Virus record (IMG/VR): IMGVR_UViG_3300046557_000378
Source: a virus
Reading direction: 5' to 3' (one strand)
Length of the DNA stretch: 62,170 nucleotides
The position numbers were made by a program, and so were the translations under genes. The notes below the pieces were generated by a model. It ran no database searches. It worked only from the letters and a program-made list of their open reading frames with translations, and was not told the DNA's origin. The first letter of the stretch is position 1; the number at the start of each line of letters is the position of its first letter. This document shows, piece by piece, positions 7,616-62,170 of this stretch.

Positions 7616-7628
7616 CGTTAAGAGCTTC

Positions 7629-7689
7629 GTAAGACGACTGACGGAGCTGCCTCATAGCGTGTTGTGGTGGTCGACATAATGCCTATACT
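7629..7689 (+). promoter_or_regulatory. early promoter/operator module 1 (palindrome variant + TTGTGG-N16-TATACT, GGTCGACATAA in spacer)
   Basis: GTAAGACGACTGAC 7629-7642; TTGTGG 7662-7667; TATACT 7684-7689, 6 nt before ATG 7696 (leaderless). Confidence 0.55.
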
Positions 7690-8412: not shown

Positions 8413-9180
8413 ATGAGCCGTAAGGACGTCGCCCGAGCGGGGCAAGGCATCGTGGCTGGCATCAAAGACGTCGCCCTGCCGGCGCTGGACCTCGACGAGA
8501 TCGAGAACGAGCCTGAAGGCGCGCTCATCGCGCGAGGTGCTGCCTACGCTCGTGAGTATGCGGCGATCGAGGACAAGCCGACGATCCTGGCAATGAACAT
8601 CGCCACCGTGCTACTCGCGATCAGGAAACAGCACGACGACTGGCTAGGCAGATCTCATGAGTACCGTCTGGTAGCAGCAGAGGTCTACGCACAGGCCAAC
8701 ATCCCGGATGACGCCAGAAAGCGACTTCAAGGCGCAGTCAGATACCACGTCGGAAACATGCTCCGTCGGTACCTGACCCCCCGTGAACTGAAGTCACTGG
8801 AGCTGCTGGACACGTCCCCGCTGGAGCGTCAGCAAGACAACCGAGCGACGAACTCAGTGCTCCTGTCTGCGATGCGGGTAAGCGCAGAGGTTGAGGCGTC
8901 AACTCCGAAGCGCGCCCCGGCGCCGGCGAAGGGGAAGGCGACGTCGAAGGAGACGGTCCCCGAACAAGGAGGGGGCGCAGGCCTCGTCGTCAAGGCGACT
9001 GCCGATCACCTCCGCCTGGCACACGCCGCATCCAACATCCTCGGGCAGCTCAACGCCAGCGTCATCGACGAGCACATGACCGACGGACAGCGCGCCAAAC
9101 TTGACGAGGAGCTAGCGGAGGTCGAACGCGTGACCCGTCGGCTACGTCGGATGCTGAAAAGGGCCGGTTCAGAGGCCTGA
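8413..9180 (+). CDS. hypothetical protein
   Basis: ATG 8413 in frame within track ORF 8362-9180, preceded by GAGAGG; helical, Lys/Ala/Pro-rich linker. Confidence 0.6.
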   Translation: MSRKDVARAGQGIVAGIKDVALPALDLDEIENEPEGALIARGAAYAREYAAIEDKPTILAMNIATVLLAIRKQHDDWLGRSHEYRLVAAEVYAQANIPDDARKRLQGAVRYHVGNMLRRYLTPRELKSLELLDTSPLERQQDNRATNSVLLSAMRVSAEVEASTPKRAPAPAKGKATSKETVPEQGGGAGLVVKATADHLRLAHAASNILGQLNASVIDEHMTDGQRAKLDEELAEVERVTRRLRRMLKRAGSEA

Positions 9181-12188: not shown

Positions 12189-12827
12189 ATGACAGAGTTC
12201 GCCCCTGAGTTCCACGAGTGGCCCAAGACGAAGCGGCTCTTCAGGCCCATCACGGTGTCGGAGAAGCTCGACGGCTCGAACAGTGGCGTCGGGATCACCA
12301 AACTCGACTGGACGGACGACATCACCGCTCCGCCCGTGGACTTCAAGGTCGTGACTGTCGGCGCCGACGCGTACGCCGTTCACGCGCAGTCGAAGAACCG
12401 GATCATCTATCCCGGGAAGACCAGCGACAACTACGGCTTCGCCGGCTGGGTCTACGACAACGCCGCGGAACTCGTCGACGTCTTCGGCCCCGGACTGCAC
12501 TACGGCGAGTGGTGGGGGAGGGGGATCCAGCGAGGCTACGGCGTCGACGGTAAGCGGTTCTCGCTCTTCAACACGGCGCGGCACTTTGAGAACCCGGGGG
12601 CGGAGATCGGCGGTGTTCCGGTCGGTCCCGTTCCGGTGCTGTACGAGGGCATCTTCGACGAGTCCGCCATCACGGGCGCCCTGATGGACCTCCGGACGTA
12701 CGGTTCCGTCGCGGCCTCCGGCTTCGACAACCCGGAAGGCATCTGCGTCTACCACACACAGACCCGCAACGTCTTCAAGGTCACGCTTGACAACAACGAC
12801 GCCGGCAAGTGGGAGGCGGCTGCGTGA
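12189..12827 (+). CDS. ATP-dependent RNA ligase-like nucleotidyltransferase (minimal, adenylyltransferase domain only)
   Basis: Motif I SEKLDGSN, motif III-like YGEWWG, motif IV EGICVY, motif V FKVTL; ATG 12189 after GGAGGAGAG. Confidence 0.7.
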   Translation: MTEFAPEFHEWPKTKRLFRPITVSEKLDGSNSGVGITKLDWTDDITAPPVDFKVVTVGADAYAVHAQSKNRIIYPGKTSDNYGFAGWVYDNAAELVDVFGPGLHYGEWWGRGIQRGYGVDGKRFSLFNTARHFENPGAEIGGVPVGPVPVLYEGIFDESAITGALMDLRTYGSVAASGFDNPEGICVYHTQTRNVFKVTLDNNDAGKWEAAA

Positions 12828-12855
12828 GTCGTTTGACGGAGCCCGTCAGAGCGAC
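12828..12855. promoter_or_regulatory. inverted pair of palindrome half-variants (GTCGTTTGACGG-agc-CCGTCAGAGCGAC)
   Basis: Reverse-oriented copy of GTCAAACGAC operator variant directly after stop 12825-12827. Confidence 0.45.
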
Positions 12856-16302: not shown

Positions 16303-16708
16303 CCGGCTGTGTGACGCCGTAGACGTCATCCTGTACGGCCCTGACAGCCCGAAGAGCAATGCGGAGCACGCGGACGACTTGCTTGACGTGCTGCGGTCAG
16401 AGTTGGAGGAGCTGAGTCGGCTCCGCAACGCCTGGCGCGCCGCTCGCCGTCGGGCATCCCGTGCCATGGGTGCCTGGCGCTACATGCGTTGGCACGAGGA
16501 TGCGCAGAACAAGGAGATGCGGGCACAGGACGATTTCGCGTCGTGGCTCTGGAAGCAGATGTCCGAGCGCCGTAAGGAACGCGACCGCTACCGCCTCGCC
16601 TGGCTATCCGCCCGCCGGCGTGCCGCGGACGAGGCCAACTTCGGCACGGAGGCCCTGGCACTCCGGGACGCAGAGATCCGGCGCCTGAAGGCTCCGTCAG
16701 TCGACTGA
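16289..16708 (+). CDS. hypothetical basic coiled-coil protein
   Basis: ATG 16289 in frame in track ORF 16268-16708. Confidence 0.55.
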   Translation: MELHDRLCDAVDVILYGPDSPKSNAEHADDLLDVLRSELEELSRLRNAWRAARRRASRAMGAWRYMRWHEDAQNKEMRAQDDFASWLWKQMSERRKERDRYRLAWLSARRRAADEANFGTEALALRDAEIRRLKAPSVD

Positions 16709-16709
16709 C
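16696..16709. promoter_or_regulatory. perfect 14-bp palindrome GTCAGTCGACTGAC
   Basis: Overlaps stop codon 16706-16708. Confidence 0.6.
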
Positions 16710-16722
16710 GAACCCCAAAAGT

Positions 16723-22049: not shown

Positions 22050-22138
22050 AGGCATTGTGTCTGTGTGTACCCGCATCCCACATCGCTCGTTGGCTCATGG
22101 TCAGTACTCATACCCGCTGTATCGAACGCGCGTACGAT

Positions 22139-22924: not shown

Positions 22925-22972
22925 CTCCGCCAGTCGTCTAGCGCATCGCCACAACCGCAAAGCACTGACACA

Positions 22973-22999
22973 AGGGGCGTCCTTCGGGGCGCCCCTTTA
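22973..22999 (+). terminator. intrinsic terminator
   Basis: AGGGGCG...CGCCCCT then TTT; preceded by palindrome variant 22929-22942. Confidence 0.65.
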
Positions 23000-23024
23000 G
23001 GCATGACTCAAGAGGGGAGAGACC

Positions 23025-25538: not shown

Positions 25539-27454
25539 AGTACTTCCCCTACACCATCGCGGGCACGGAGACTATGACCCGCGTTCCGGAGACGGCCGCG
25601 GACCTCGACGAGTTCCGTCGGTGGGTGGAGAACAAGGCTCGCGCCGACGAGATGATCGGGGCGGACACGGAGACGACCGGACTCGACACGTTCTCTCCGA
25701 CGTACCGTCTGCGTACATCGCAGTTCGGCGACAAGCGGGACGCGTGGGTCCTTCAGACCGAACTCTCCGACCGCACCGCGGGAACGGCTCGGTGGGCGTT
25801 CGACGTGCTGCCCCGTCTCGTGCTCCATAACGCCACCTTCGACATGTTGGTCTTGGACCGTCACCTAGGGGTCCCGCTGGCGACGCTGGCGCCCAAGGTG
25901 ACGGACTCGAAGATTATCGCGCATCTGTTCGATTCGCGACCCCGACACGAGGGCGGCTACGGACTGAAGCTGAAGGAGCTGTGCGCGAGGGACATTGACC
26001 CCAACGCCCCTGACACGCAAGAGGACTTGACCGCTGTTTTCCGCTCCATCGGGGAGACGAAGGCCACCGGGTGGGCGAAGATCGACATCAACCACCCGAC
26101 CTACCTCCAGTACGCAGGACTTGACGCGATCCTCGTTTCTCGGTGGCTCCCTGTCGGCGAGGAACGGCTCCGCAAGGTCGGAGTTCGTCAGGCACTCGTG
26201 GACTTCGAGCACCGCGTGATGTACGTCTGCGCGGTCATGGAGCGCCGCGGGATGCTCGTCGACCAGGACTATGTGCGCCCGCTCGTGGAGCGGCTGACGG
26301 AGGAAGCGGCACTTCACGCCGGCAAGGCGTCGAAGTACGGCGTGAACTCCGTCAACGCTCCGGCGCAGGTCTCCGCGGCGCTGCTCGGCATGGGCGAGAC
26401 ACTGACGGAGCGCACGGACTCCGGCAACCTGAAGGTGGACAAGGAGATCCTCCAGGTTCTTGCCGACGTCGACCGGGATTGGGAGCGGATCGGCGCACGC
26501 AAGCCGAACCCTCTGGCGGACGCGGTTCTCCGCTCGAAGCGCGCGGGGAAGTGGGCGAAGTCGTACGGCGTCGCCATGCGCGACGGCCTGGACGTCGACG
26601 GCCGCATCCATCCGAACATCAACTCACTTCAGGCACGCACGGCGCGGATGTCCATCTCGCGTCCTCCGCTCCAGCAGCTCCCGTCGGGGGACTGGACGAT
26701 CCGGCGCGCGATGCTCGCGGACCCGGGGCACCGCATCTTCTCCGTCGACTACTCCGCGGTGGAGATGCGCGTCCTTGCCGCCCTGGCCGACGAGAAGACG
26801 ATGAAGCGTGCCATCGCGGAAGGTCGCGACCTGCACGACTTCACCGCCGAACTCATCTGGGGCCCGAACTTCACGAAGGGGCACCGAAAGATCGGCAAGG
26901 GTGTCGGCTTCGGGAAGGTCTACGGAGGCGGAGCAACGACCTTGAGCCGTCAGACTGGTGCCCCGCTGGACGAGGTGAAGCAGGCTGTTGCGGCGTACGA
27001 CAGGGTGTATCCGGGGATCAAGCGCTACTCGCGCGACGTCCAGCGGAAGGCACGGGCTAACGGCTACGTCGTCATCACACCCACGGGCCGGCGCCTGGCG
27101 CTGGACCGGGACAGGGTCTACGCGGCGACTAACTACGCGGTCCAGAGCACCGCGCGGGACGTGCTCTGCCAGGCCCTGTTGAACATGCACAACGCGGGTC
27201 TGACGGAGTACCTCCTCCTGCCGATCCACGATGAGTGCCTAGGGTCGGCCCCCGTCGACGTCGTGGACGAGGTGGCGCGAGAGGTGGGCGAGGCCATGCG
27301 GATGGACTTCTTCGGGGTCCCACTGGACACGGATCCGGAAGTCGGGGGCCGGAGTTGGGGGTCGCTGTACATGAAGACCCCTGACGGCAAGTACGACCAC
27401 GCTCTCCGCGCGCGGGAAGACGAGTGGTACGCAAGCGTGAGGCTGGCGGCATGA
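25535..27454 (+). CDS. family A DNA polymerase with 3'-5' exonuclease domain
   Basis: 639 aa; ExoI GADTETTGLD; RDLHD; motif B KIGKGVGFGKVYGGG; motif C LPIHDE. Confidence 0.9.
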   Translation: MKYFPYTIAGTETMTRVPETAADLDEFRRWVENKARADEMIGADTETTGLDTFSPTYRLRTSQFGDKRDAWVLQTELSDRTAGTARWAFDVLPRLVLHNATFDMLVLDRHLGVPLATLAPKVTDSKIIAHLFDSRPRHEGGYGLKLKELCARDIDPNAPDTQEDLTAVFRSIGETKATGWAKIDINHPTYLQYAGLDAILVSRWLPVGEERLRKVGVRQALVDFEHRVMYVCAVMERRGMLVDQDYVRPLVERLTEEAALHAGKASKYGVNSVNAPAQVSAALLGMGETLTERTDSGNLKVDKEILQVLADVDRDWERIGARKPNPLADAVLRSKRAGKWAKSYGVAMRDGLDVDGRIHPNINSLQARTARMSISRPPLQQLPSGDWTIRRAMLADPGHRIFSVDYSAVEMRVLAALADEKTMKRAIAEGRDLHDFTAELIWGPNFTKGHRKIGKGVGFGKVYGGGATTLSRQTGAPLDEVKQAVAAYDRVYPGIKRYSRDVQRKARANGYVVITPTGRRLALDRDRVYAATNYAVQSTARDVLCQALLNMHNAGLTEYLLLPIHDECLGSAPVDVVDEVAREVGEAMRMDFFGVPLDTDPEVGGRSWGSLYMKTPDGKYDHALRAREDEWYASVRLAA

Positions 27455-27861
27455 GGCCTGCGCGTCTCGTGCCCCCAACGGCGGGACGTGCTACCGCAGT
27501 TGGCCGCACGGTGGCGGGAATTCGCCCCTCTGCCGTGCGTGTCGCACCTCGTCCCATGCGCATCACACCGTCTCTTCGTCCCCCGGAGCCCCCGCTGTAC
27601 CCCTCCCGTCGTGACGTTCTGCGACGGTGGGAGGAGTTGGAGGTGTGGTCCTGTGCCTACTGTGACTGCGCTTTCAACAAAAAGGTTGTACCGGAGGTGG
27701 ACCACGTTCGTCCGCTTGCGAAGGGCGGTCTTCACGAGTGGTCCAACTTCGCCCCGGCGTGCGCCTGGTGCAACCGCACGAAGGGTGATCAGGATGTTGT
27801 CAAATGGCTGGTCAAAACCACTGGTGAGAGTCTCACCGTGGAGCGCGCAGCGGACACGTAG
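27451..27861 (+). CDS. HNH endonuclease
   Basis: ATGA overlap with polymerase stop; CAYCDC...VDHVRPLAKGG...N..PAC.WCN. Confidence 0.8.
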   Translation: MRPARLVPPTAGRATAVGRTVAGIRPSAVRVAPRPMRITPSLRPPEPPLYPSRRDVLRRWEELEVWSCAYCDCAFNKKVVPEVDHVRPLAKGGLHEWSNFAPACAWCNRTKGDQDVVKWLVKTTGESLTVERAADT

Positions 27862-27944
27862 CGGTACACCGCACCGAGTCAACGTGCTTCACACTCTCTT
27901 CACTATGTAACGAATTAATTACGTCGAATCGCTCACGTCCCGGC

Positions 27945-27990
27945 TATGTCGACCGACATAACCCCAGGTGAGATTGGGTGGTCGACATAA
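27945..27990. promoter_or_regulatory. operator cluster: 16-bp dyad TATGTCGACCGACATA plus GGTCGACATAA
   Basis: Read directly in the AT-richer intergenic region 27862-28130. Confidence 0.5.
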
Positions 27991-28130
27991 CCCGGTCGCG
28001 TGCTCCGTATCGCCAAAGCGGACGTAGTTACCCATATGGGGCCGGATAGCGGAGCTGATCCGGCCGCTTGCTCATTGCCTGTGGAGGATGCGTGACTTAC
28101 AGTCCTGATCACGTCGCAGACGGACGGCGA

Positions 28131-28439
28131 ATGACCGAATTTCTTGACGCGCTTGATCGTGCGTCAGCTGAGGTCCGGCAGTTCGTCAACGCCTACGGCG
28201 ACGCAGTGACCATGCCGGGACGTCGTCCCGATGTGGATGCGGACGGAACCGGCCGGCAGGCGACGCACGGACCATCCCGCCCGACGGAGCTTGTGGCCCT
28301 AGACCTCGGTCGCGGAGCGCTCCAAGCAGAACTGAATAACGGCGTCAAGTGGCTGCCCTACGCGATAGCGGCAGTTCAAGGCGTCGCCGCATCCATGGAT
28401 CGCGCGCTCGCCCGATGGGAGGGGGAGGACGTGGCCTGA
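28131..28439 (+). CDS. hypothetical protein
   Basis: ATG 28131 in frame in track ORF 28068-28439. Confidence 0.5.
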   Translation: MTEFLDALDRASAEVRQFVNAYGDAVTMPGRRPDVDADGTGRQATHGPSRPTELVALDLGRGALQAELNNGVKWLPYAIAAVQGVAASMDRALARWEGEDVA

Positions 28440-28457
28440 ACAGTCCGGGGGGACGGG

Positions 28458-28679
28458 TTGATCATCATCACGGGGCCGCAAGCCACTGACGATGAAGTCG
28501 GGGATGTAGAAGAGATGGCGGCTTTGCTCGGGGCGCTGCCTGCCTACAGCGCCGCGATTCAGTGGGCGACGGTAACCGCCCTGTACTGCCTGGCCGGTTG
28601 GGAGACGTGCTCCCTGGCCGTGGCCGATGTTGCCGTGGCCGACGCACTCGGCCTGACGGTCCGGCACCTGCCTGTCTGA
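28458..28679 (+). CDS. hypothetical protein
   Basis: 73 aa; TTG start; acidic N-terminus, hydrophobic C-terminal half. Confidence 0.45.
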   Translation: MIIITGPQATDDEVGDVEEMAALLGALPAYSAAIQWATVTALYCLAGWETCSLAVADVAVADALGLTVRHLPV

Positions 28680-28684
28680 CCTCC

Positions 28685-28737
28685 GCTAGTCGACTGACGA
28701 AGCCCCCGTTCCTGCACGGGACGGGGGCTTTCGTTTG
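28685..28737 (+). terminator. palindrome variant GCTAGTCGACTGAC (28685-28698) followed by intrinsic terminator (28700-28737)
   Basis: AAGCCCCCGT-11 nt-ACGGGGGCTT then TCGTTT. Confidence 0.65.
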
Positions 28738-28771
28738 CCCAAATCACTGCGTGACCCAGGTCACTTACGAT

Positions 28772-28805
28772 CCCGCGTCACAACTAGCTCAGATTCCCCC
28801 ATTAC
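28772..28805 (+). promoter_or_regulatory. phage-specific promoter-like motif, copy 4 (upstream of sigma gene)
   Basis: CCCGCGTCACA-N11-TTCCCCCATTAC; 34 nt before ATG 28839. Confidence 0.5.
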
Positions 28806-28838
28806 CTCAGTACGCAAGGCACACACGGAGGAGACGGC

Positions 28839-29630
28839 ATGAACCGCATCGAGGTCACGGACGAGCAGATCCTTGCCGCACAGACGGGCGACGGTGACGC
28901 CATGTGGGACATCGTCCAGTCGTTCGACCCCATGCTGAAGAGCATCATCCGCAGCGCCGCCCCGAGCGCCAGCGCGGAGGACGCGGAGGATCACCTCCAA
29001 GAGGGACGCGCGGTATTGATCCAGCACATTCGCGACTACGACTCGTCGTCCTCGTCGGCTCAACTCTCCTCCTACGTCTACCGTGCTGTGCGCCGCGCCA
29101 TCGCGGAGGCGGACGTCGTGTCGAAGACTCCACTCACCATTGACGCAACGGCGGCGCTCCGTGTGCGCTGGGCGCTGTGGGAGTGCGGGGGAGACACCGA
29201 GCGGGCGTGGGCGACGTTCCGTGACGCGACGTCGCCGACGAAACGGATGAGCCGGGAACTGTTCATCGCGATGGTGGAGGCACTCGCCGGTACGGAGAGT
29301 CTGGACAGTCCGTTCGCGGGATCGCTTACCAGGCGTGCGGGCGCGATGGAGCGGGACAACGGCCTGACGCTCGCCGACGTCCTGGAAGACCGGGCGACGT
29401 CGGTCACCGACCCCCTGGAGCGCCGCGACCTCGCACGCTGGCTCATGACGCAGATCCCGCAACGTCAGTCACTCGCACTCCGCGCTTTCTACGGCGTCGG
29501 CATGACTCGCATGACCGACCCGGAACTGTGCGCGGACCTGGAGGTCAACGGCGTCGCCCTCCGACGGCTCCGCTCCCGCGGAGTGGCCTCCGCCCGCACC
29601 GTGGCCGACGCTCACGACCTTGCTGCGTAA
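28839..29630 (+). CDS. sigma-70-family RNA polymerase sigma factor (group-3-like)
   Basis: 263 aa; region-2-like DAMWDIVQSFDPMLKSII...EDHLQEGRAVLIQHIRDYD...SYVYRAVRRAI; region-4-like IPQRQSLALRAFYGVGMTRMTDPELCADLEVNGVALRRLRSRG. Confidence 0.7.
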   Translation: MNRIEVTDEQILAAQTGDGDAMWDIVQSFDPMLKSIIRSAAPSASAEDAEDHLQEGRAVLIQHIRDYDSSSSSAQLSSYVYRAVRRAIAEADVVSKTPLTIDATAALRVRWALWECGGDTERAWATFRDATSPTKRMSRELFIAMVEALAGTESLDSPFAGSLTRRAGAMERDNGLTLADVLEDRATSVTDPLERRDLARWLMTQIPQRQSLALRAFYGVGMTRMTDPELCADLEVNGVALRRLRSRGVASARTVADAHDLAA

Positions 29631-29664
29631 GACATTAACCATCATCTGACCTGGAGTTACGACC

Positions 29665-29811
29665 ATGAAGCGACTTCCTTCCCTCGACGACTACGACGTC
29701 GACGGTGTCCGCCTCGACGAGGCCGCCCTCTGGGGTGACGACATCAGGTACGCGGTGGAGGCCCGGAACGACTCAATGCCTCTCGACGGTTTCTCCGTCG
29801 AATCGCTCTGA
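29665..29811 (+). CDS. hypothetical acidic protein (48 aa, below track cutoff)
   Basis: ATG 34 nt after sigma stop; Asp-rich; ends 10 nt before operator 29822. Confidence 0.4.
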   Translation: MKRLPSLDDYDVDGVRLDEAALWGDDIRYAVEARNDSMPLDGFSVESL

Positions 29812-29821
29812 CCCACCCTCC

Positions 29822-29835
29822 GTCAAACGACTGAC
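29822..29835. promoter_or_regulatory. palindrome variant GTCAAACGACTGAC
   Basis: 28 nt before ATG 29863. Confidence 0.55.
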
Positions 29836-29862
29836 GCAGCTACAAGACACGAGGAGAGCCCC

Positions 29863-30330
29863 ATGGAGTTCACGCTGAAGTGCAAGCTCGACAGCAACGA
29901 GCGCGACCGCATCGAAGTCTCACGCGACTACGACGGCGACATCCGGTTCTACGCCCCCGCCAACAACACGGTGTTCACCGACGACTCCGGGGCGCGCGAG
30001 TTCGCCCGGAAGATCCTCGCGCTCGTCGGGGACGAGGCGCCGGAGGCGGAGCCGCTCAAGGTCGGTGACCTGGTGGAGGTCACCGTCGACCGTCACCACG
30101 ACACATCGGACGTCGGCAAGCGCGGGCGGCTGACGCGGATCGACACGGATGACGTCCCATACGGCGTCACCCTGGACAACGGCGCCTTCATCTGGGTCAC
30201 GGACGTCCGTAAGGTGCCGCCGACGGTCTCGTCCACCCGGTCCACCCTTCTCGCCGAAGCCCGCCGCGAGGCAGGTACCGGCGCCTCGCCGGCCGACGTT
30301 CTGGCGTACGCGAAGTTCCTGTCCGAGTAG
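29863..30330 (+). CDS. hypothetical protein with one KVGD SH3/KOW-like module (family member 3)
   Basis: 155 aa; LKVGDLVEVTV...; N-terminal domain shared with 30379 ORF. Confidence 0.65.
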   Translation: MEFTLKCKLDSNERDRIEVSRDYDGDIRFYAPANNTVFTDDSGAREFARKILALVGDEAPEAEPLKVGDLVEVTVDRHHDTSDVGKRGRLTRIDTDDVPYGVTLDNGAFIWVTDVRKVPPTVSSTRSTLLAEARREAGTGASPADVLAYAKFLSE

Positions 30331-30334
30331 CTCC

Positions 30335-30348
30335 GTCAGTCGACTGAC
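30335..30348. promoter_or_regulatory. perfect palindrome GTCAGTCGACTGAC
   Basis: 5 nt after stop 30328-30330, 31 nt before ATG 30379. Confidence 0.6.
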
Positions 30349-30378
30349 GCACCGCAAGACATCAACAGAGGAGAGAAC

Positions 30379-30951
30379 ATGACCGAGTACACGATCCGAT
30401 GCAACTCCGGTGTCAGCGACGTCATCATCGCCTACCGGGAGTCTGGCAGCGACTCCGTGAAGCTGAAGGGCACGCGTAGCGGAGAGTTCGCCATCGACGC
30501 GTACGCCACCCCGGACACCGCCCGCACATTCGCCCGCGGCATCCTCGCCCTGGCCGACGAGATCGACGGGGGAGAGGTTGCGGAGGCGGCCCCTCCCGCG
30601 CGTACCCCGGTGGTCGGCGACAAGGTCCGCGTCGCCGAAGACGACGCATTCAACCGGAGGGGCGAGTTCGTCGGCCTGGTCGGGACGCTGAAGGAGATCC
30701 GCTCCAGCGCCCGCCGGCTCCCGTACTACGTCGAGTTCGGCACCGGATCCGGGAAGCACGGCGACTCCGTGAACGGATCGTGGTACTGCGCGAGGGTCGA
30801 ACTCGTCGACGAGCCGGATACTGCCCCGGACCCGGAGCCGTCCCTCAGCGTGCGCGGTGAGTTCGTGGTGGAGGCTCAGGCGCTGCTCGTCGGCAAGGAG
30901 TACACGGCCATGGACCTCGTCACCGTGGCGGCGTTCCTGTCGGCGCCGTAG
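30379..30951 (+). CDS. hypothetical protein with one VVGD SH3/KOW-like module (family member 4)
   Basis: 190 aa; VVGDKVRVAEDDAFNRRGEFVG... matches module 3 of 19011 ORF. Confidence 0.65.
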   Translation: MTEYTIRCNSGVSDVIIAYRESGSDSVKLKGTRSGEFAIDAYATPDTARTFARGILALADEIDGGEVAEAAPPARTPVVGDKVRVAEDDAFNRRGEFVGLVGTLKEIRSSARRLPYYVEFGTGSGKHGDSVNGSWYCARVELVDEPDTAPDPEPSLSVRGEFVVEAQALLVGKEYTAMDLVTVAAFLSAP

Positions 30952-30955
30952 CTCC

Positions 30956-31024
30956 GTCAAACGACTGACGGAGGAAGTTTCTCCACGAACCATGTTGTGG
31001 TGGTCGACATAACTGTGCCATAGT
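30956..31024 (+). promoter_or_regulatory. early promoter/operator module 2
   Basis: GTCAAACGACTGAC 30956-30969; TTGTGG 30995-31000; N18 with GGTCGACATAA; CATAGT 31019-31024. Confidence 0.5.
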
Positions 31025-31088
31025 CGACCCCGCAAGGCACTGACGGAGAGGGGCGCTCCACACGGGGCGCCCCAGGGGAGGGGACGAG

Positions 31089-31400
31089 ATGGCCACCATC
31101 ACCGATTGGTCGGGCAAGGAAGTCACTGGCGTTCTTTCCGACGTCCCCGCCAAGTGGGCGTCTGTGAACGTGAGGGACGCGGGCTTCTCGCACTACGAGG
31201 CTGGCGGTGACCTGATCCGGGCGCGCGTCGAGTACAGCCACAAGCGCGGTTACTGGATCTGGGAGCTGTACTCGGGGTGCAGGTACGTGCCTGTTGACGA
31301 CAACGAGTACCGCACTCCCAAGACCTGTACCACGGCGCTCCAGGCTATTCGCGCCGTACAGCGCGCTGCCCGGAAGCACCGTGTAGCGCAGTACTTCTAG
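31089..31400 (+). CDS. hypothetical protein
   Basis: 103 aa; first six codons (MATITD) duplicated at 33138. Confidence 0.6.
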   Translation: MATITDWSGKEVTGVLSDVPAKWASVNVRDAGFSHYEAGGDLIRARVEYSHKRGYWIWELYSGCRYVPVDDNEYRTPKTCTTALQAIRAVQRAARKHRVAQYF

Positions 31401-31471
31401 CCGAAACGTCCTCCGGGGCGTCCGCGGGGCATGGCCTACCCGCGTTGAAGAGGCAGGCCGTTGGAGGGGAA

Positions 31472-31687
31472 ATGCGCGTCACTGGACGTTGGATCGACGA
31501 GGACGACAAGAACGGTCGGATGCCTGGAAAGTTCGGTACCGCTGAGGAGGCTGAGGACGCCGCCCGGAAGTTCATGGAGGGACACCCCACCGTGACCAGG
31601 GTGTCGATCAGCCACGAAACGGGCGGATGGCTCACCGACGTGGACCGAAGCGGAAAGTCGTCGCACGGGTGGCGTGCGAACCCCTGA
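31472..31687 (+). CDS. hypothetical protein
   Basis: ATG 31472 after GGAGGGG; in frame in track ORF 31445-31687. Confidence 0.5.
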   Translation: MRVTGRWIDEDDKNGRMPGKFGTAEEAEDAARKFMEGHPTVTRVSISHETGGWLTDVDRSGKSSHGWRANP

Positions 31688-31693
31688 ACCCCC

Positions 31694-31767
31694 GCCCCCA
31701 TAGGCAAGCCCGTCGACCTGGTACCCCCAGTGCCGGCGGGCGCGCGGTTCGAATCCGCGGCGGGGCA
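31694..31767 (+). pseudogene. tRNA remnant: intact T arm and 3' acceptor strand, degenerate 5' two-thirds
   Basis: CGCGG-TTCGAAT-CCGCG then GCGGGGC-A; 5' strand pairs 5/7; no D or anticodon arm can be drawn. Confidence 0.6.
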
Positions 31768-31802
31768 CGCGAAGCACCACACCCTGATTGAAAGTAGGAG
31801 CC

Positions 31803-32423
31803 ATGCCTCGACCCTCCCGCGCGCCGCTCATCGGAAGCCTCGCCCTGGCGGCAGTCGCCACGGCCGCAGCCATGTCGACGGTCCTGTCCGTCGCCTCCGA
31901 CGCGCAGGCGCCGGGTAACCCGCGCCTGTCCGACGTCACCACGGCGCCCGTCGTGACGCCCTCCCCGGTCGCTCCGTCGCCCTACCGCCCGACGCCGCAC
32001 ACGTCGCGTGAGGGGGAGCGCAAGGCACTGCCGCCGTCCTCCATCCTGCGCCTCACCACTCAGTCGACGAGGCCGGCGACGCCGCACCCCGTCGCGACGC
32101 CTCCGGCGGACATCAGGATCACCTACTACCGCGACTGCTCAGGGAACCCCCAGCCGTGCGTGGACGCGGGTTCCCTGACGCAGTACGCGGGACGGATCCT
32201 CGCCGGCCACAACTACATGGGCTACCAGTGGCTTTCCCGAGTCCCCGTCGGCCGCACGGTCCGCGTCATCTCCGGTCCACTCGCCGGGACGTACAAGGTC
32301 TACGGGCACCTGACCATCGGGCGCCAGGGCGGAGCCATCCCGAACTTCCCGGGGTCGCCGTCGCTGGTGCTTCAGACCTGCGAGGGAAGCGGGACGGGGT
32401 TCACGCTGCTGCACCGGGCGTAG
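31803..32423 (+). CDS. secreted sortase-like (class E/F-type fold) protein, tentative
   Basis: Signal-like N-terminus (LIGSLALAAVATAAAMSTVLSVASDAQA), Pro-rich linker, ILAGH...VGRTVRV...YKVYGH...LVLQTCEG...R matching the His/TLxTC/Arg layout. Confidence 0.45.
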   Translation: MPRPSRAPLIGSLALAAVATAAAMSTVLSVASDAQAPGNPRLSDVTTAPVVTPSPVAPSPYRPTPHTSREGERKALPPSSILRLTTQSTRPATPHPVATPPADIRITYYRDCSGNPQPCVDAGSLTQYAGRILAGHNYMGYQWLSRVPVGRTVRVISGPLAGTYKVYGHLTIGRQGGAIPNFPGSPSLVLQTCEGSGTGFTLLHRA

Positions 32424-32432
32424 CACCACAAG

Positions 32433-32636
32433 TCACTTACGTCGCCAACGGAAGATTGACTCAAGCAGTCCTCGGTAGAAGTAGGTCAGTGCGCGGATGA
32501 TGTCGGGGCGAGCGGCCTCCGACGTGCCACGGACACCGATGCGTAGGGTGATGATGCCGCCCACTATCACGACGACAACGAGGGCTAGCAGGTAGAGGGG
32601 CGCGACAGCCCATGGAACGACGCTGGCGTACGACAT
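32433..32636 (-). CDS. small membrane protein
   Basis: 67 aa; TM PWAVAPLYLLALVVVVIVGGIITL; GAGAGGAG RBS 4 nt upstream of ATG. Confidence 0.6.
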   Translation of the reverse strand: MSYASVVPWAVAPLYLLALVVVVIVGGIITLRIGVRGTSEAARPDIIRALTYFYRGLLESIFRWRRK

Positions 32637-33006
32637 GCGTCTCCTCTCAAAGTTGCTGCCTTCGAGAGGTCACCGCCCTGTGACGGTGCTTCAACCTCAA
32701 CGAAGGACAGGTTTTCCTGTCGACACGGCGCCCGCTTACCGTGCTCCGCCGGAGCGGATGTTTCGTTGAGGTCGTGTGCGCGACCTTCGGTACTGCATAG
32801 CGGGCGGGATAGCCGTCGGCTGGTAAGGCCGTCAGTGCCATCCCATACAGGGCATTCAGAAGCCCCAGCATCCTGTGGGGCAATGCCCCTGCAGGACGGA
32901 ATACGTGAGTGCGGCACCTCGGCGGCGGCGCCTCTTGTCTGTCGCGCAGGACGGTACACCACACATCGTCAGCCGCGCCAACTAGCTTGAGAGAACGGGA
33001 GTTGAA
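32637..33006 (-). other. highly structured untranslated region (candidate long 5' leader or ncRNA)
   Basis: No credible ORF; RBS-occluding hairpin 32643-32669; 79-nt cloverleaf 32694-32772 closed by an 11-bp helix; nested helices 32848-32891; TTCAAC-N16-TAGTTG promoter-like on minus strand at 33006-32979. Confidence 0.4.
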
Positions 33007-33038
33007 GGTGTAGGAGGCCGCGACGACGGCAGGGCTCC

Positions 33039-33101
33039 GTCAAACGACTGACGTTACTTCCCCTAAGGGTATTGTGGTGGTCGACATAACTGTGCCATAG
33101 T
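33039..33101 (+). promoter_or_regulatory. early promoter/operator module 3
   Basis: GTCAAACGACTGAC 33039-33052; TTGTGG 33072-33077; CATAGT 33096-33101. Confidence 0.5.
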
Positions 33102-33137
33102 GAGGGCAACGCAAGGGACTGACGAATGGGACGCAAA

Positions 33138-33350
33138 ATGGCCACCATCACCGACACTCAGATAGTTCGCATCGACACCGCCAACGACGAGCGTCGCAGC
33201 GTCTTCAGCATCCTGGTGGACGGTGGCTTTGACCCCGACGGCATCCGCCACGGCATCCGCGCTTCCGCGGGCCGTATTTGCCCCGCCCACTGCATCACCT
33301 GCCGCAACAACCGCGCTCACGCCAGCTGCGTTGGCTGCCCCGACTGCTAA
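33138..33350 (+). CDS. small Cys-rich protein
   Basis: 70 aa; C-terminal CPAHCITC...C.GCPDC (7 Cys in 24 aa). Confidence 0.55.
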   Translation: MATITDTQIVRIDTANDERRSVFSILVDGGFDPDGIRHGIRASAGRICPAHCITCRNNRAHASCVGCPDC

Positions 33351-33363
33351 ACCGAGCCACCCC

Positions 33364-33397
33364 GGAGCCCCTGTCAATTTCCGGCGACAGGGGCTCC
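33364..33397 (+). terminator. 12-bp stem-loop (no T-run)
   Basis: GGAGCCCCTGTC-10 nt-GACAGGGGCTCC. Confidence 0.5.
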
Positions 33398-33441
33398 ACA
33401 GCACCCCCAACTCACACACCACGCACACGAACTGAGGAGCC

Positions 33442-34089
33442 ATGAGAGCCAACCTGCGGGATCCACTCCTGATTCAGGCCGTCATAGCCGCAGCCCTCTC
33501 CTTCGCGCACATCCACGACATCGCGGACGCCGCGGGGCAGCACGGGTGGAAGGCATGGGCGTACCCGATCAGCGTCGACCTCCTCTTGGTCATGGCCTGG
33601 AAGCAGATCCGGGAGGCCGCGGAGGGTGAGTCGAAGCGCGCGCCGTGGGTGTGGTTCCTCCTGTCCATGGCCGCGTCGATCGGGGCGAACATTGCGACGG
33701 CCGGCGTCCTCGACCTGGAGCATCCCCCGACGATCCTCCGCGTCCTCGTCGCCGGCTGGCCCGTGCTCGCGTTCTTTGGTGGCTCGTTGCTCGTCCACTC
33801 GCGCAAGCCACGCACGGATGGGTCGCAGGAGGCCGCTGGAGAGCCTGCGGGGGATCAGGTGGAGGAAGTGGTCCCGGAGCCCGTGAAAGTTACCCCTGCG
33901 CGCGTCCTGGTGTCGTACAAGGAGGCTGCCGACGTCCTGGGCGTGGCCGTCGAAACGGTGCGAGGCGCGGCGAACGGATCGAACCCCCGACTGATGAAGT
34001 ACCCGGCGCCGGATGACCCCCGAGCCGTCCGCGTCGACCTGAGCGAGGCCCGTAGGGTCATCAACAACCGTCGCCCCGTGGCTGGGTAA
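33442..34089 (+). CDS. DUF2637-like membrane protein with C-terminal excisionase/MerR-type HTH
   Basis: 215 aa; 4 TM N-terminal half (AALSFAHIHDIA...AYPISVDLLLV); C-terminal VSYKEAADVLGVAVETVRGAA. Confidence 0.6.
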   Translation: MRANLRDPLLIQAVIAAALSFAHIHDIADAAGQHGWKAWAYPISVDLLLVMAWKQIREAAEGESKRAPWVWFLLSMAASIGANIATAGVLDLEHPPTILRVLVAGWPVLAFFGGSLLVHSRKPRTDGSQEAAGEPAGDQVEEVVPEPVKVTPARVLVSYKEAADVLGVAVETVRGAANGSNPRLMKYPAPDDPRAVRVDLSEARRVINNRRPVAG

Positions 34090-36403: not shown

Positions 36404-36646
36404 ATGGCTCTACGCTCATTCGGCAAGGACCCCGAAACCAACGGCGACCACTGCCCGACTGTGTGGCTCGACGAGGAGAAGCAGGAGTTTGTGTTCCAGG
36501 GGTGGAAGGCGGACGAGGTTCTCCAGGCAGAATGCCTTGCTACGGGATCCATCCCCGACACGGAGGCAGTCGTCCGGCTGCCTGCCCGCATGGTTCAGCA
36601 GATCAGGGAGGCGTGCGATGCCGCAGATGGTGCCGCCGTTCGGTGA
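36404..36646 (+). CDS. small protein, first gene of a three-gene cassette
   Basis: 80 aa; ATG after ACGGAGG; DHCPTVWLDEEKQEFVFQGWK; overlaps next gene by 29 nt. Confidence 0.55.
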   Translation: MALRSFGKDPETNGDHCPTVWLDEEKQEFVFQGWKADEVLQAECLATGSIPDTEAVVRLPARMVQQIREACDAADGAAVR

Positions 36647-37142
36647 ACTGATCGCAGGCTGTCACCACTCCGCCGTTCACCTGGAGACGCGGGACGTCTA
36701 CGGAGTCGAAGAAGAGGACGCCGACTTCGCAGCGTGGCGTAACGGACAGGCGTACGACCTGAGTGATCGGGCGTCCTGGTGGAACGGCTTCCATCAGTCC
36801 ATCGCTGACGCCGTGGCACGTGGCGTTACCGTTCGTCGTGCCCGCGTCGTGTCGGAGCCCGTCAGTGAGTACATCCGCTACGAGCATTCGTGCACGGCGC
36901 AGAACATCGCGGCCGGCGAAGACATTCGGTGGCTGCCGCGACGTCTGGCGTCGGATCTTCTGATCCCCGGCAACGACCTTTGGATCTTCGACGACCGACT
37001 GATCCGGTCCAGCCTCTTTGCAGGCGACGGACGGTTTGTCGTTGACGTCATGGAGGACGCGGCCGACGTCGTGAAGCGCCACGCAGAAGCGTTCGCTGCC
37101 GTCTGGGAACGTGCCATCCCGCACGAGGACTTCCGGATCTGA
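36618..37142 (+). CDS. DUF6879-like protein (tentative)
   Basis: 174 aa; SAVHLETRDVY...ARVVSEPVSEYIRYE...AGEDIRWLPRR...DLWIFDD pattern. Confidence 0.55.
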   Translation: MPQMVPPFGELIAGCHHSAVHLETRDVYGVEEEDADFAAWRNGQAYDLSDRASWWNGFHQSIADAVARGVTVRRARVVSEPVSEYIRYEHSCTAQNIAAGEDIRWLPRRLASDLLIPGNDLWIFDDRLIRSSLFAGDGRFVVDVMEDAADVVKRHAEAFAAVWERAIPHEDFRI

Positions 37143-37155
37143 GCGACGCGCACCG

Positions 37156-38007
37156 ATGCAATCTCCCTACCCGTCGACGGCTCTTGACGCCGCACGCCGC
37201 GCCATCGCGGAGCAACTCCGCGAGATCCGGCGTGACGCTGGGCTGACGGGTAGGGAGGTCGCAGCCCGCGCAGGGTGGTTGCCCTCGAAGGTCTCACGCC
37301 TCCAGAGCGCAACTACGCCCCCGTCGGACGACGACATCCGCGCATGGTGCGTCGCGTGCAACGCTGAGGACAGGGTCCCGGATCTCCTGGCGGCGAACCG
37401 CACGGCAGAGTCCATGTACTTGGAGTGGCGCCGTGTCCAGCGAACAGGGCTCAGGCGACTTCAGGAGTCGCGCATCCCGCTGTACGAGCGAACGCAACAG
37501 TTCCGCGTCTACAGCTCTACCGTCATCCCTGGCTTCCTCCAGACCTACGAGTATGCGGCGGCCCTCTTGGGGAACATCGCGCGCGTCCACGGCACACCAG
37601 ACGACGTCGACGACGCGGCAGCCGCGCGGGTCGAGCGCTCGCACATCATCCGCGAGGGAGGGCACCGCTTCGGGATCCTCCTGGAGGAGTCTGTTCTCCG
37701 CCACATTGTGGGGGAGGCAGCGACCATGGCGGGGCAACTGGGCTATCTACTCTCGGTGATGGCTCTGCCGTCCGTGTCGGTCGGGATCATTCCGGCGAGT
37801 AGACCGCGGGGGATGTGGACGCTGGAGACGTTCACGCTGTTCGACGACGAGCGCGTTCATGTGGAACTGCTGACGGCCGCTATCACCGTGACGACGCCCG
37901 GAGAGATCTCGCAGTACGCCCACGCGTTCGAGGAAATGGCGTCACTCGCGGTACACGGAGCCGGCGCGCGCACGCTCATCTCAGCGGCCATTGACTCGCT
38001 CGATTGA
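37156..38007 (+). CDS. XRE-family HTH regulator with DUF5753-like C-terminal domain (WhiJ/Scr1-type)
   Basis: 283 aa; HTH LREIRRDAGLTGREVAARAGWLPSKVSRLQS; long C-terminal domain with IPGFLQTYEYA. Confidence 0.65.
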   Translation: MQSPYPSTALDAARRAIAEQLREIRRDAGLTGREVAARAGWLPSKVSRLQSATTPPSDDDIRAWCVACNAEDRVPDLLAANRTAESMYLEWRRVQRTGLRRLQESRIPLYERTQQFRVYSSTVIPGFLQTYEYAAALLGNIARVHGTPDDVDDAAAARVERSHIIREGGHRFGILLEESVLRHIVGEAATMAGQLGYLLSVMALPSVSVGIIPASRPRGMWTLETFTLFDDERVHVELLTAAITVTTPGEISQYAHAFEEMASLAVHGAGARTLISAAIDSLD

Positions 38008-39200: not shown

Positions 39201-39248
39201 TACGCAGGTTCTTCTAGTACGACAACCCGTACACGGGATACCTGCGTA
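39201..39248. other. candidate attP (48-bp imperfect inverted repeat)
   Basis: TACGCAGGT...ACCTGCGTA perfect 9-bp outer arms, inner GTACG/CGTAC symmetry, centre AA; ends 15 nt before int ATG. Confidence 0.45.
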
Positions 39249-52441: not shown

Positions 52442-52687
52442 ATGGCAACCCTGACAACGAACGTCCACGTGACGGACGCAGAGGGCACGGCCCACGTGTT
52501 CGGCCCCGCGGACGATGTCCCGGAGTGGGCGCAGGCGCTCATCACGAACCCGAAGGCGTGGGCGGAGGCCGCACCGACCTCCGTCAGTCGACTGACGGAG
52601 CCCGCTCCGGCGCGGAAGGCTACGCCCGCCAAGCGGACCCCCGCGCGGCGAAAGGCGGCTGACGGTGGCGCTGTTCAGTCCGACTGA
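52442..52687 (+). CDS. hypothetical protein with basic C-terminus
   Basis: 81 aa; contains the 22-bp perfect palindrome. Confidence 0.5.
   Translation: MATLTTNVHVTDAEGTAHVFGPADDVPEWAQALITNPKAWAEAAPTSVSRLTEPAPARKATPAKRTPARRKAADGGAVQSD
52579..52600. promoter_or_regulatory. 22-bp perfect palindrome CTCCGTCAGTCGACTGACGGAG
   Basis: Read directly; core identical to 16696 and 30335 copies. Confidence 0.6.
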
Positions 52688-54830: not shown

Positions 54831-54851
54831 CGCACTGCACCACCGACCCGC

Positions 54852-54865
54852 GCTAGTCGACTGAC
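54852..54865. promoter_or_regulatory. palindrome variant GCTAGTCGACTGAC
   Basis: 29 nt before ATG 54894. Confidence 0.5.
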
Positions 54866-54893
54866 GCACCCCAGACATAGGAGACCCGCGCGC

Positions 54894-60835: not shown

Positions 60836-62170
60836 GTGGCCATCACTGGCAACCTTCTGTCGGCCAACGCGGAGAGCATCGAAACGGATGCCTCCGCGTG
60901 GTCGGCGCTGGTCAACGCGGCGACCCTCACGCAGGGCTCAGGGGGCACGCTCGGTACCCATTGCCTGTCGTTCAAGTCCGTTGCGGCGGGGGACTGCCAA
61001 GTCGGTCTTGCCGCTCGGGTCGCAGTGACGCCAGGTGTCGAGCACTGGAGTTGCGCCTCGATCTTCCCGCCGGCGAGTGGCGCCACGGCGTGGCTTGAGA
61101 TCCGCTGGTACACATCCGGCGGGACGCTGATCAGTACGACGACGGGGCCGACGATCGCCGCCCCGGCCGCAACCTGGTTCCAGATAGCGGCAGTTGGAAC
61201 CGCCCCTGCCACGGCGGCAACTGCGCTAGTCGTTTTGCGCGTCACGGCAACGGCCGCTACTCAAAGCTGGTTCGCCGACAGGATCTTCCTGGGGCAGACG
61301 ATCCGGTCGACGGGCAACCTGTTGCCGTGGAGCACGGAGACGATCGAAGTCGACCGCTCCGGATGGGCTGCGGACACGAACTGCACGCTCGGCATCTCCA
61401 CGACGTCGTACACGTGGTATCAGTCGATGATCCTCACGTCGTCCGCGGCCGGCGCATGCCTAGCGCGGAATGCGGTGGCGGACGCTCCAGCAGTGACGCC
61501 AGGCGTCGAGTACGCAGCACAGGTTCAGGTGTCACCCGGAGTCAGCGCGCTGTCCTTCGCGATTCAGATCCGGTGGAGGGACGCGTCAGGGACGGAGATC
61601 GGAACCTCCTCCGCAGCCTTCACGCCGGCGAGCGGCCAATGGACGCGGTGCACAGTCGCTGCGACCGCCCCGGTCGGTGCCGTGACTGCACGCGTTGCAC
61701 TGGCACCCACGGCAACAGCCGCAGGGCAACAGTGGGTCCTCGACCGCATGCTCCTCGCGCCGACGAGCGCGCTCATGACGTCCGGGAACCTACTTCCCTA
61801 CAACACGAGCGACATCGAACAGGACTCGACCGGTTGGACGGTGACCGGCGGGACGGCCACGCAGACGACGGAGCAAGTCCTAGGCGGTGCCTACGCCTTG
61901 CGAATCGCCGCTACTGGCGGCGACGTCGTGGCAACGATCACCGTACCTGTTGGCGGCGTGCAAGAGGATCTCGGCTATCAGTTCGCTCCCTGCGTCTACA
62001 AGCCCGTCACTCGCGTCTACCAAACGCGCATCGAGTGGTTGAACTCCGCAGGCGATGCGGTGCGGACGAGGTGGCAGTCCTGGACCGGCGCCGTGGGTGG
62101 GTGGGCCGTCGCACGCATGGGCGACCTGGCCCCCGAGGGGGCCGTCTCCGCTCGCCTGAGCCTGCTAGTC
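60836..62170 (+). CDS. minor tail protein, N-terminal part with three tandem ~150-aa carbohydrate-binding-module-like repeats (continues at nt 51-911)
   Basis: No stop to window end; repeats each begin GNLL(S/P)xN...E.D..GW; full product is 731 aa after removing the overlap. Confidence 0.85.
   Translation, partial: MAITGNLLSANAESIETDASAWSALVNAATLTQGSGGTLGTHCLSFKSVAAGDCQVGLAARVAVTPGVEHWSCASIFPPASGATAWLEIRWYTSGGTLISTTTGPTIAAPAATWFQIAAVGTAPATAATALVVLRVTATAATQSWFADRIFLGQTIRSTGNLLPWSTETIEVDRSGWAADTNCTLGISTTSYTWYQSMILTSSAAGACLARNAVADAPAVTPGVEYAAQVQVSPGVSALSFAIQIRWRDASGTEIGTSSAAFTPASGQWTRCTVAATAPVGAVTARVALAPTATAAGQQWVLDRMLLAPTSALMTSGNLLPYNTSDIEQDSTGWTVTGGTATQTTEQVLGGAYALRIAATGGDVVATITVPVGGVQEDLGYQFAPCVYKPVTRVYQTRIEWLNSAGDAVRTRWQSWTGAVGGWAVARMGDLAPEGAVSARLSLLV
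62121..62170. repeat. terminal direct repeat (identical to 1-50)
   Basis: Read directly. Confidence 0.95.

Follow-up and report, generated by a model that had tools for sequence, protein, structure and literature searches.

What reads a short palindrome that recurs at gene boundaries throughout a phage genome? The question is raised by IMG/VR virus record IMGVR_UViG_3300046557_000378, a stretch of 62,170 nt analysed here 5' to 3' and referred to as the window, in which a preliminary description had flagged the 14-bp palindrome GTCAGTCGACTGAC at 30335-30348 and likened its dispersed copies to the conserved inverted repeats (CIRs) bound by the phiC31 repressor and to mycobacteriophage stoperators. 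We compared the window with Streptomyces phage Samy (OR263580) and about 17 other relatives, cited below by contig labels such as c282 or L043. The sites form a network with fixed positions and lineage-specific sequences, and with moderate confidence we regard the inverted repeat as the predicted binding site of a phage-encoded, sequence-specific regulator, that is, as a functional counterpart of the phiC31 CIRs and other repressor-stoperator systems.

Enrichment and extent of the inverted repeat

The perfect 14-mer is present three times (16696, 30335 and 52583; 0.00 expected, 0 of 100 shuffles). Up to two mismatches raise the count to nine copies, compared with 0.62 expected and a largest shuffle of 3, while a third mismatch dilutes the signal (12 versus 5.95 expected). 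The right-half pattern CCGNNNNNCGACTGACG with at most one mismatch gives 14 matches at 11 distinct places, where 2.3 matches are expected. These comparisons with shuffled controls confirm the earlier impression of a repeat far beyond chance: the sites are real and strongly enriched. The variants that had been listed at 7629, 22929, 28685, 29822, 30956, 33039 and 54852 are all present as well, and the small gene that contains the perfect 22-bp palindrome of 52579-52600 turns out to be a head-tail connector homologue (52442-52687).

The true unit is 22 nt long, CTCCGTCAGTCGACTGACGGAG, and can be described as an 18-22-bp inverted repeat with the core CCGTCAGTCGACTGACGG and the extension CTCC...GGAG. 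A 22-nt matrix built from the known copies finds 11 sites at 22.9-35 bits, compared with a best score of 22.3 bits and a 95th percentile of 18.1 in 200 simulated genomes, although this test is circular because the training sites score themselves. The family-wide pattern NCG-NN-A[AG][ATC]-CG-[ATG][CT]T-NN-CGN recovers the same 11 sites among 12 (0.53 expected, maximum 4), and adds one weak minus-strand site at 61223 that reaches only 12.9 bits by the window matrix, inside the null range. Two sites lie in the late operon (52579 and 54848), and none between 34 kb and 52 kb, a region that holds the lysogeny block and the genes from terminase through capsid. Conservation within the site is uneven and strongest in the left flank CTCC and in the right half CGACTGACG. 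Ten of the window copies are asymmetric, eight of them forward and two inverted.

The positions relative to genes are more varied than first described. Seven of the 12 sites do follow a stop codon closely, at 0-6 nt or overlapping it (three read TAG+CTCC, the two behind TGA begin 1 and 6 nt past it, and a further two overlap a stop codon), but the rest do not, which narrows the claim that most copies lie 0-10 nt after a stop. A start codon said to come 28-45 nt later is close behind in only three sites, at 27-30 nt from the 14-mer or 23-26 nt from the 22-mer; at the others, terminator-like hairpins or promoter-like boxes come next. As for the supposed inverted pair at 12828-12855, its first member corresponds to a minus-strand copy at 12820-12841, but the second is no copy. 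Four isolated half-sites that had been counted with the network (2941, 18751, 23028 and 60669) all fall below the matrix threshold. Those at 2941, which encodes a gene end, and at 23028, which encodes R-L-T-E, are letter for letter the same in c282, a relative whose network motif is mainly ACTCAC; the one at 18751 lies inside a gene start and the one at 60669 has no counterpart in Samy. All four are probably coding coincidences outside the network.

Same positions, different sequences in relatives

Relatives were gathered by protein anchors (sigma, repressor, exonuclease and recombination directionality factor, RDF) and by exact-protein look-ups; Samy is the sole isolate with DNA-level relatedness. 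The window 14-mer is absent from Samy, which instead carries about 15 copies of GCG(T/C)AAAACGACTCACGC at positions that align with the window sites (Table 1), nine copies being forward and four inverted. Conservation in related phages, proposed earlier as a check on the network, thus takes the form of positional counterparts in Samy and about 17 relatives, each with its own version of the sequence. The 18-nt element reads GCGTAAAACGACTCACGC in Samy and CCGTCAGTCGACTGACGG in the window; the two networks share the half CGACT(C/G)AC and differ at the symmetric positions 1/18 and 5/14, plus positions 7-8. All versions can be aligned in a single 18-nt frame in which CG occupies positions 2-3, 9-10 and 16-17.

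All copies within a genome change in concert, and their flanks remain alignable. For instance, the flanks of site 30331 are nearly identical in the window (...GAGTAGCTCCGTCAGTCGACTGACGCACCGCAAGACA) and in c282 (...GAGTAGCTCCGTCAAACGACTCACGCACCGCAAGACA), while the site letters differ (CTCCGTCAGTCGACTGACGCAC versus CTCCGTCAAACGACTCACGCAC). Alignment of the genomes shows the sites to be positional counterparts that have changed together genome by genome. Concerted change between alignable flanks calls for a trans-acting reader that changes its specificity.

Individual sites illustrate the same correspondence. Site 7625 has counterparts in Samy and all relatives, and is unchanged in L063 and L066, where the repressor-like protein matches that of the window at 80% and 76% identity; genomes in which this protein is at most 71% identical have other site versions. 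The counterpart of site 12820 is GTGAAACGACT(T/G)ACGC at a gene start in Samy and relatives. Site 16692 lies 12 nt ahead of a conserved CGCGTCACA..CCCCCATAAC box preceding the RDF gene (16821), and counterparts upstream of the RDF gene are found in Samy, L059/L077, L072, L075 and L076. The degenerate site 22925 aligns with its Samy counterpart between conserved flanks. Site 28681 is followed by a strong terminator hairpin with a T-tract (28708-28728), a conserved promoter-like box and the sigma-like gene, and this arrangement recurs in Samy, c282/c250, L043, L044 and L042. Of the late sites, both are kept in L004 (89% identical DNA), with 54848 identical, while L003 (73% identical DNA) keeps 52579 and has a diverged 54848.

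These positional data also bear on whether the palindrome is a mobile or selfish repeat, of the repetitive extragenic palindromic (REP) or miniature inverted-repeat transposable element (MITE) kind, or else an artefact of chance or composition. It is short, palindromic, mostly intergenic and multi-copy, and the same 18-mer is present by chance in many unrelated genomes. However, the copies occupy counterpart positions in relatives between alignable flanks, without target duplications or insertion gaps, and one of them lies in frame within a gene; this positional correspondence largely refutes a mobile repeat. A chance origin is opposed by the enrichment far above shuffles and by the matches in unrelated genomes, which are single copies; the 35 matches in public genome contigs are mostly of this chance kind, and a motif search of public viral contigs returned just two true relatives, L003 and L004. 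We therefore consider either explanation very improbable. One contig of Streptomyces fumanus (L012) does have two perfect 14-mers, at 1100 and 6240, within a repeat of about 100 nt occurring 5 kb apart. This double match was ruled out as kin of the network, as it belongs to a different repeat of about 100 nt unrelated to the phage.

A probable DNA site rather than an RNA element

The copy inside the head-tail connector gene is informative about what is conserved. Each genome keeps its own DNA motif there, and the encoded amino acids differ (SVSRLTE in the window versus A-Q-N-D-S-R-V in Samy). Predicted RNA hairpin energies range from -3.4 to -15.2 kcal/mol among the window copies, and are -5.7 kcal/mol for the Samy consensus and only -1.6 to -2.1 kcal/mol in c282, where the site sequence is conserved despite the weak hairpin. 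Moreover, asymmetric versions occur in both orientations, with four inverted copies in Samy, one each in c282 and c250 and one or two in the window; the four in Samy each stand 7 nt upstream of a TTGTGT box. The coding-embedded copy, the unconserved hairpin, the occurrence in both orientations and the uniformity of copies speak for a DNA site that a sequence-specific factor recognises, and comparison between genomes shows that selection acts on the DNA itself and not on the protein it encodes or an RNA fold.

Palindromic repeats at cistron boundaries are also known to act as RNA, for example the intergenic RNase III hairpins of T7 and the REP elements of enterobacteria. The window repeats resemble these in lying at cistron boundaries of early and late transcripts, and could accordingly be a 3'-end hairpin that stabilises mRNA, an RNase III-like processing site or a weak terminator that sets expression ratios. 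Most copies are indeed right behind stops and co-oriented with transcription, the best ones can form hairpins of 8-9 bp at -13 to -15 kcal/mol, and copies stand behind capsid-side and major-tail genes, a setting in which mRNA stability commonly differs between genes. Unlike in T7 or REP elements, however, it is the sequence that is kept and not the structure, and copies can be inverted or sit in untranscribed spacers; site 7625 stands between a terminator-like hairpin and a promoter-like box. The sites lack a T-tract, the terminator scan called only the separate hairpin at 28708, and an Rfam scan of the window gave no family match at the sites. One sequence shared by all copies of a genome and changing together is not something that a generic hairpin needs. 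An RNA element thus appears distinctly unlikely.

Table 1. Sites of the inverted repeat, associated features of the window, Samy counterparts and site versions in other relatives
Feature	Sequence	Window position	Strand	Setting	Samy counterpart
Site	CTTCGTAAGACGACTGACGGAG	7625..7646	+	Between terminator-like hairpin and promoter-like box 7662-7689 of SprT-like/repressor-like operon	24788, before SprT/repressor promoter
Promoter-like box	TTGTGG-N16-TATACT	7662..7689	+	6 nt ahead of ATG 7696 (leaderless), SprT-like/repressor-like operon
Candidate cognate protein, 255 aa, all-alpha 'repressor-like' open reading frame		8413..9180	+	Downstream of SprT-like gene 7696-8322
Inverted copy	CTCCGTCAAACGACTCACGCAG (as read on minus)	12820..12841	-	Overlaps stop of gene 12189-12827	28250, gene junction
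Site with perfect 14-mer core		16692..16713	+	Overlaps stop of gene 16289-16708	31966, before RDF gene
Degenerate site, 22.9 bits	CTCCGCCAGTCGTCTAGCGCAT	22925..22946	+	Directly behind TAG; hairpin and primase gene next	37877, before primase gene
Site		28681..28702	+	1 nt past TGA; then terminator hairpin, conserved promoter-like box, sigma-like gene	44669, before terminator ahead of sigma-like gene
Site		29818..29839	+	6 nt past TGA; 23 nt ahead of ATG 29863	45790, after next small genes
Flagged copy, perfect 14-mer core		30331..30352	+	Directly behind TAG of 29863-30330; 26 nt ahead of ATG 30379	46832 (with 30952), after next small genes
Site		30952..30973	+	Directly behind TAG; 21 nt upstream of promoter-like box TTGTGG..CATAGT (30995)	46832 (with 30331)
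Site		33035..33056	+	15 nt upstream of promoter-like box TTGTGG..CATAGT (33072)
Perfect 22-bp palindrome		52579..52600	unstranded	Linker of head-tail connector-like gene 52442-52687; encodes S-V-S-R-L-T-E	8366, inside head-tail connector gene
Site		54848..54869	+	Between major tail protein gene (after hairpin) and tail chaperone gene; 24 nt ahead of ATG 54894	10597 (GCGCAAAACGACTCACGC), between major tail protein and chaperone genes
Candidate weak site	core GCGCAAAACGACTAGCGC (minus)	61221..61242	-	Adjoins small minus-strand open reading frames; family-wide pattern
Version in c282 / c250	CCGCAAAACGACTCACGG
Version in L059	CCGTAAAACGACTCACGG
Version in L056	CCGTAAGTCGACTCACGG
Version in L082	CCGCTAGTCGACTAGCGG
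Version in L080	CCGCGAGTCGACTCGCGG
Version in L075 / L076	GCGCAAAACGTTTTGCGC
Version in L074	GCGTGAACCGGTTCACGC

Comparison with known networks and a proposed mechanism

Genome-wide networks of repressor sites are a rare form of prophage silencing, known from phiC31, L5/Cluster A and R4-like phages and unlike the single control region of the lambda type. phiC31 and L5 have 18-30 dispersed repressor sites, and those of L5 serve at the early promoter and block elongating RNA polymerase (PMC4557955); the repressor-stoperator system of R4-like Streptomyces phages has been described in the same terms (PMC10276819). Reading the phiC31 genome directly, we found at least 15 copies of its repeat CCTACTCACGTGAGTAGG just behind stops, both early and late, after the terminase, capsid, tape-measure and tail-fibre genes, and also ahead of and inside the repressor gene c (19204 and 19776).

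The window network shares with the phiC31 CIRs its dozen or more inverted-repeat copies, early and late and mostly just past stops, including copies after capsid and tail genes and at a putative repressor gene; here the copy at 7625-7646 stands upstream of the promoter-like box of the candidate repressor operon. phiC31 c lies downstream of the virion genes in the same transcription direction (PMC4557955), and the candidate repressor gene of the window likewise follows virion, lysis and deoxynucleoside monophosphate (dNMP) kinase genes on the same strand. By contrast, the site sequences differ (CCGTCAGTCGACTGACGG versus CCTACTCACGTGAGTAGG), the family-wide pattern has no phiC31 match, the candidate has 255 aa and no PF25746 match compared with 683 aa for c, and many counterpart sites in the Samy-like lineage are asymmetric hybrids.

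With the L5/Cluster A gp71 and the R4, phiJoe and phiScoe systems the window has in common many dispersed sites in short intergenic spaces. An orientation bias relative to transcription may be a further resemblance, although it is not absolute and counterparts from several genomes do not count as separate observations. The stoperators of L5 are asymmetric, 13 bp long and occupied by a monomer (PMC4557955), whereas the window site spans 18-22 bp and is a perfect palindrome in its best copies, and the hybrids of relatives share the 18-nt frame. The candidates scanned gave no 'immunity repressor' family match, and no gp71-like helix-turn-helix (HTH) repressor was identified, no direct comparison with the gp71 or R4 repressors having been run. 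The network of Samy has true positional counterparts, the same 18-nt frame and a repressor-like protein 63% identical, although its sites are hybrid and the best window copies are full palindromes. The Samy paper makes no mention of the motif or of an operator. As far as sequence analysis reaches, the earlier analogy with phiC31 is therefore supported, and the network seems to be a phiC31-CIR-like, stoperator-like system of a known kind that has so far been undescribed in the Samy-like lineage.

If so, the regulator, most likely the product of 8413-9180, would occupy the 11-12 sites in the prophage. Five sites (7625, 16692, 28681, 30952 and 33035) precede conserved promoter-like boxes by 12-21 nt, or stand ahead of a terminator that is itself followed by such a box, and binding there would damp or autoregulate initiation, with site 7625 mediating autoregulation of the SprT/repressor operon. 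The sites behind stops or inside operons (22925, 29818, 30331, 52579 and 54848) would act as roadblocks to read-through, as in the L5 and R4 stoperators. Early, middle and late genes would in this way be kept silent while the SprT/repressor operon remains on. We infer the binding, the binder and the repression alike.

Candidate regulators

The preliminary description found no evident cognate protein. We nominate the product of 8413-9180 as a candidate, for which no match to a DNA-binding fold was found. It has 147 homologues, almost all in Streptomyces prophages, occupies the gene-order position of phiC31 c, and shares 63% identity with SAMYPH_32, which is annotated in Samy as a 'putative immunity repressor'. 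In RNA-seq of Samy, SAMYPH_31 and SAMYPH_32 are among the few genes that are on in 10 of 10 non-inducing conditions (PMC11302927). Covariation was examined by Mantel and partial Mantel tests of motif distance versus protein distance in 18 genomes. Motif distance tracks the 8413-9180 family (r = 0.63; partial r 0.52-0.53 controlling for two flanking genes), while the two flanking genes lose all their motif signal under partial correlation. A gene-by-gene comparison of identity between the window and c282/c250, aimed at finding one diverged regulator, was given up as these genomes are too mosaic. The product of 8413-9180 is most likely the best candidate binder, as a reasoned nomination.

Several observations weigh against this assignment or against a simple repressor. 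The protein has no Pfam or PHROG match and no recognisable DNA-binding domain, and Foldseek searches of PDB and BFVD with its confident AlphaFold2 (AF2) model, all-alpha with a predicted local distance difference test score (pLDDT) of 82.6, gave no match. A GenBank note for Samy claims an HHpred relation to phrog_19947 and 29596, the phiC31 c families, but homology to phiC31 c (PF25746) is unsupported in our comparisons: BLASTP gives E = 0.008 over 94 residues, and profile-profile alignment with hhalign gives a probability of 0.6-1.4% for shallow and deep profiles, with the same weak alignment. The RDF protein follows the motif just as closely (r = 0.63; partial r = 0.37 each way), so that covariation fails to single out the repressor-like protein. 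Two other regulators, SAMYPH_89 and SAMYPH_91, are also on in 10 of 10 non-inducing conditions in Samy (PMC11302927). Since the Samy repressor operon is constitutively on, binding at its own site cannot be fully repressive. The Arthrobacter phage MaGuCo has a partial homologue but no inverted-repeat network. Finally, a simple symmetric dimer fails to explain the asymmetric, mostly co-oriented hybrids or their orientation bias.

MaGuCo (L084) has a phiC31-like gene order, in which the partial repressor-like homologue is gene 24, after the dNMP kinase gene. Between 19670 and 41004 it carries ten co-oriented copies of TGAGCA-N12-CTGGCCATCTTC ahead of early genes.

The sites might instead serve another phage regulator, perhaps one that activates or marks boundaries and is not the immunity repressor. 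Possibilities are the RDF, the XRE regulator with HTH_31 and DUF5753 (37111-38007), the gp25-like DUF2637 protein (33442-34089) and the sigma-like protein (28839-29630). Palindromes are typical targets of HTH dimers, and an HTH is clearly present in 37111-38007, whereas the repressor-like protein lacks a detectable DNA-binding fold; SAMYPH_91, which is the XRE homologue, shares with SAMYPH_89 the constant expression noted above, as the RDF shares the motif signal. Against this, the XRE and sigma-like proteins fit worse, their similarity orderings being in conflict with the motif classes: identity between XRE regulators is 62% for the window and L045, whose motifs are very different, and 75% for Samy and cL043, whose motifs also differ, while it is 67% for Samy and c250, whose motifs are similar. 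RDFs of the phiC31 gp3 type act on the integrase. The spacing from site to promoter is 4-5 nt in L043/L044, 15-21 nt in the window and either 7 or about 20 nt in Samy; such variation argues against a position-dependent activator, and sites inside operons and a coding region do not fit one either. We regard a different regulator as rather unlikely.

Half-sites in L040-L082 and Samy come in two flavours, G-TTT-N-ACGS and G-ACT-N-ACGS. Hybrids of the two (AAAAC|GACTC) are found in Samy and several other genomes, mostly in one orientation relative to transcription, while in the window lineage the site has become symmetric and the best copies are full palindromes. The proposal of a dimeric regulator is uncertain, given how many of the counterparts in relatives are asymmetric hybrids. 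Inverted copies in relatives cluster just upstream of TTGTG(G/T) boxes.

A more far-reaching proposal, which we put forward tentatively and hold to be somewhat doubtful, is that these proteins are a new all-alpha repressor family without a detectable HTH that reads two interchangeable half-site flavours. Immunity specificity would then evolve by concerted half-site switching at a dozen fixed positions, one of them in a structural gene, and the co-oriented hybrids would be directional roadblocks. If true, the stoperator strategy would exist in a third version, independent of the other two.

Irrespective of that proposal, the large and little-studied group of Samy-like prophages carries a network with fixed positions and lineage-specific sequences, a natural series for the co-evolution of immunity specificity and a dozen operators. 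It also offers concrete candidate sites for Samy, which is experimentally tractable, and possibly orthogonal repressor/operator parts for Streptomyces engineering. The value lies in this comparative series and in a candidate repressor family without a recognised fold, and not in a new principle.

Genome context and neighbouring repeats

The window is a 62.1-kb circular temperate Streptomyces phage with 62,120 unique bases, a G+C content of 65% and nearly all genes on the plus strand. Its first 50 nt are identical to the last 50 (nt 62121-62170), from which the contig is circular or terminally redundant. Searches with Samy proteins (tblastn) reveal a gene order common to both phages end to end: tail genes, lysis, dNMP kinase (6670), SprT-like protease (7696) and the homologue of the 'putative immunity repressor' (8413-9180), followed by exonuclease, RDF (16821), primase, DNA polymerase and the sigma-like gene (28839), and then by the lysogeny block, terminase and the head genes as far as the tape measure. 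Within the lysogeny block are the XRE regulator (37111-38007) and a large serine integrase (38874-40826). The Samy annotation ties many of these genes to phiC31, with which the gene order and several genes are shared. Synteny with Samy, the phiC31-linked genes and the lysogeny block together indicate a temperate phage of the Samy/phiC31 type.

The lysogeny side (36489-38007) encodes a DUF6879 protein besides the XRE regulator, which is 62% identical to that of L045 and just 29% to that of Samy, where it is on the opposite strand. The integrase, too, is only about 26% identical to its Samy equivalent. Two tRNA genes (41746-41819 and 41824-41898) are the sole Rfam matches in the window.

Two families of repeats resemble promoters. 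The box at 7662-7689 is conserved in all relatives, as read from the sequence, and belongs to a family TTGTGGTGGTCGACATAA...(TATACT|CATAGT) with further members at 30995-31024 and 33072-33101, each preceded by a copy of the palindrome; a sigma-70 scan confined to 22000-34000 left the boxes at 30995 and 33072 uncalled. The second family, CGCGTCACA-N16/17-CCCCCAT(A/T)AC followed by a TGTGTAAG-like stretch, is found at 6608, 10135, 16725 and 28774, with a compact variant at 41136. Its members are co-oriented with genes, precede the dNMP kinase, exonuclease, RDF and sigma-like genes and are conserved in relatives. They look like phage-specific, perhaps early, promoters, possibly for the sigma-like protein.

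A second conserved block (GCAC..CAAGACA), reported to follow four of the copies, is indeed conserved, and is common to relatives whatever their motif class. It is the leader of tandem paralogous genes, 29863-30330 and 30379-30951, both SAMYPH_70-like, whose near-identical leaders (GCACCGCAAGACA...GAGGAGAGAACATG) account for it. We also considered the combination of motif and CAAGACA block as a promoter but dismissed this, given a spacing that varies by 4 nt, a start site that would hit the ribosome-binding site and the fact that the block is the paralogue leader.

Small minus-strand open reading frames are inserted in the tail region at 60829-61413, one of them with a strong codon-position G+C signal. 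Together with the adjoining weak site at 61221-61242 they may represent a moron with its own control site.

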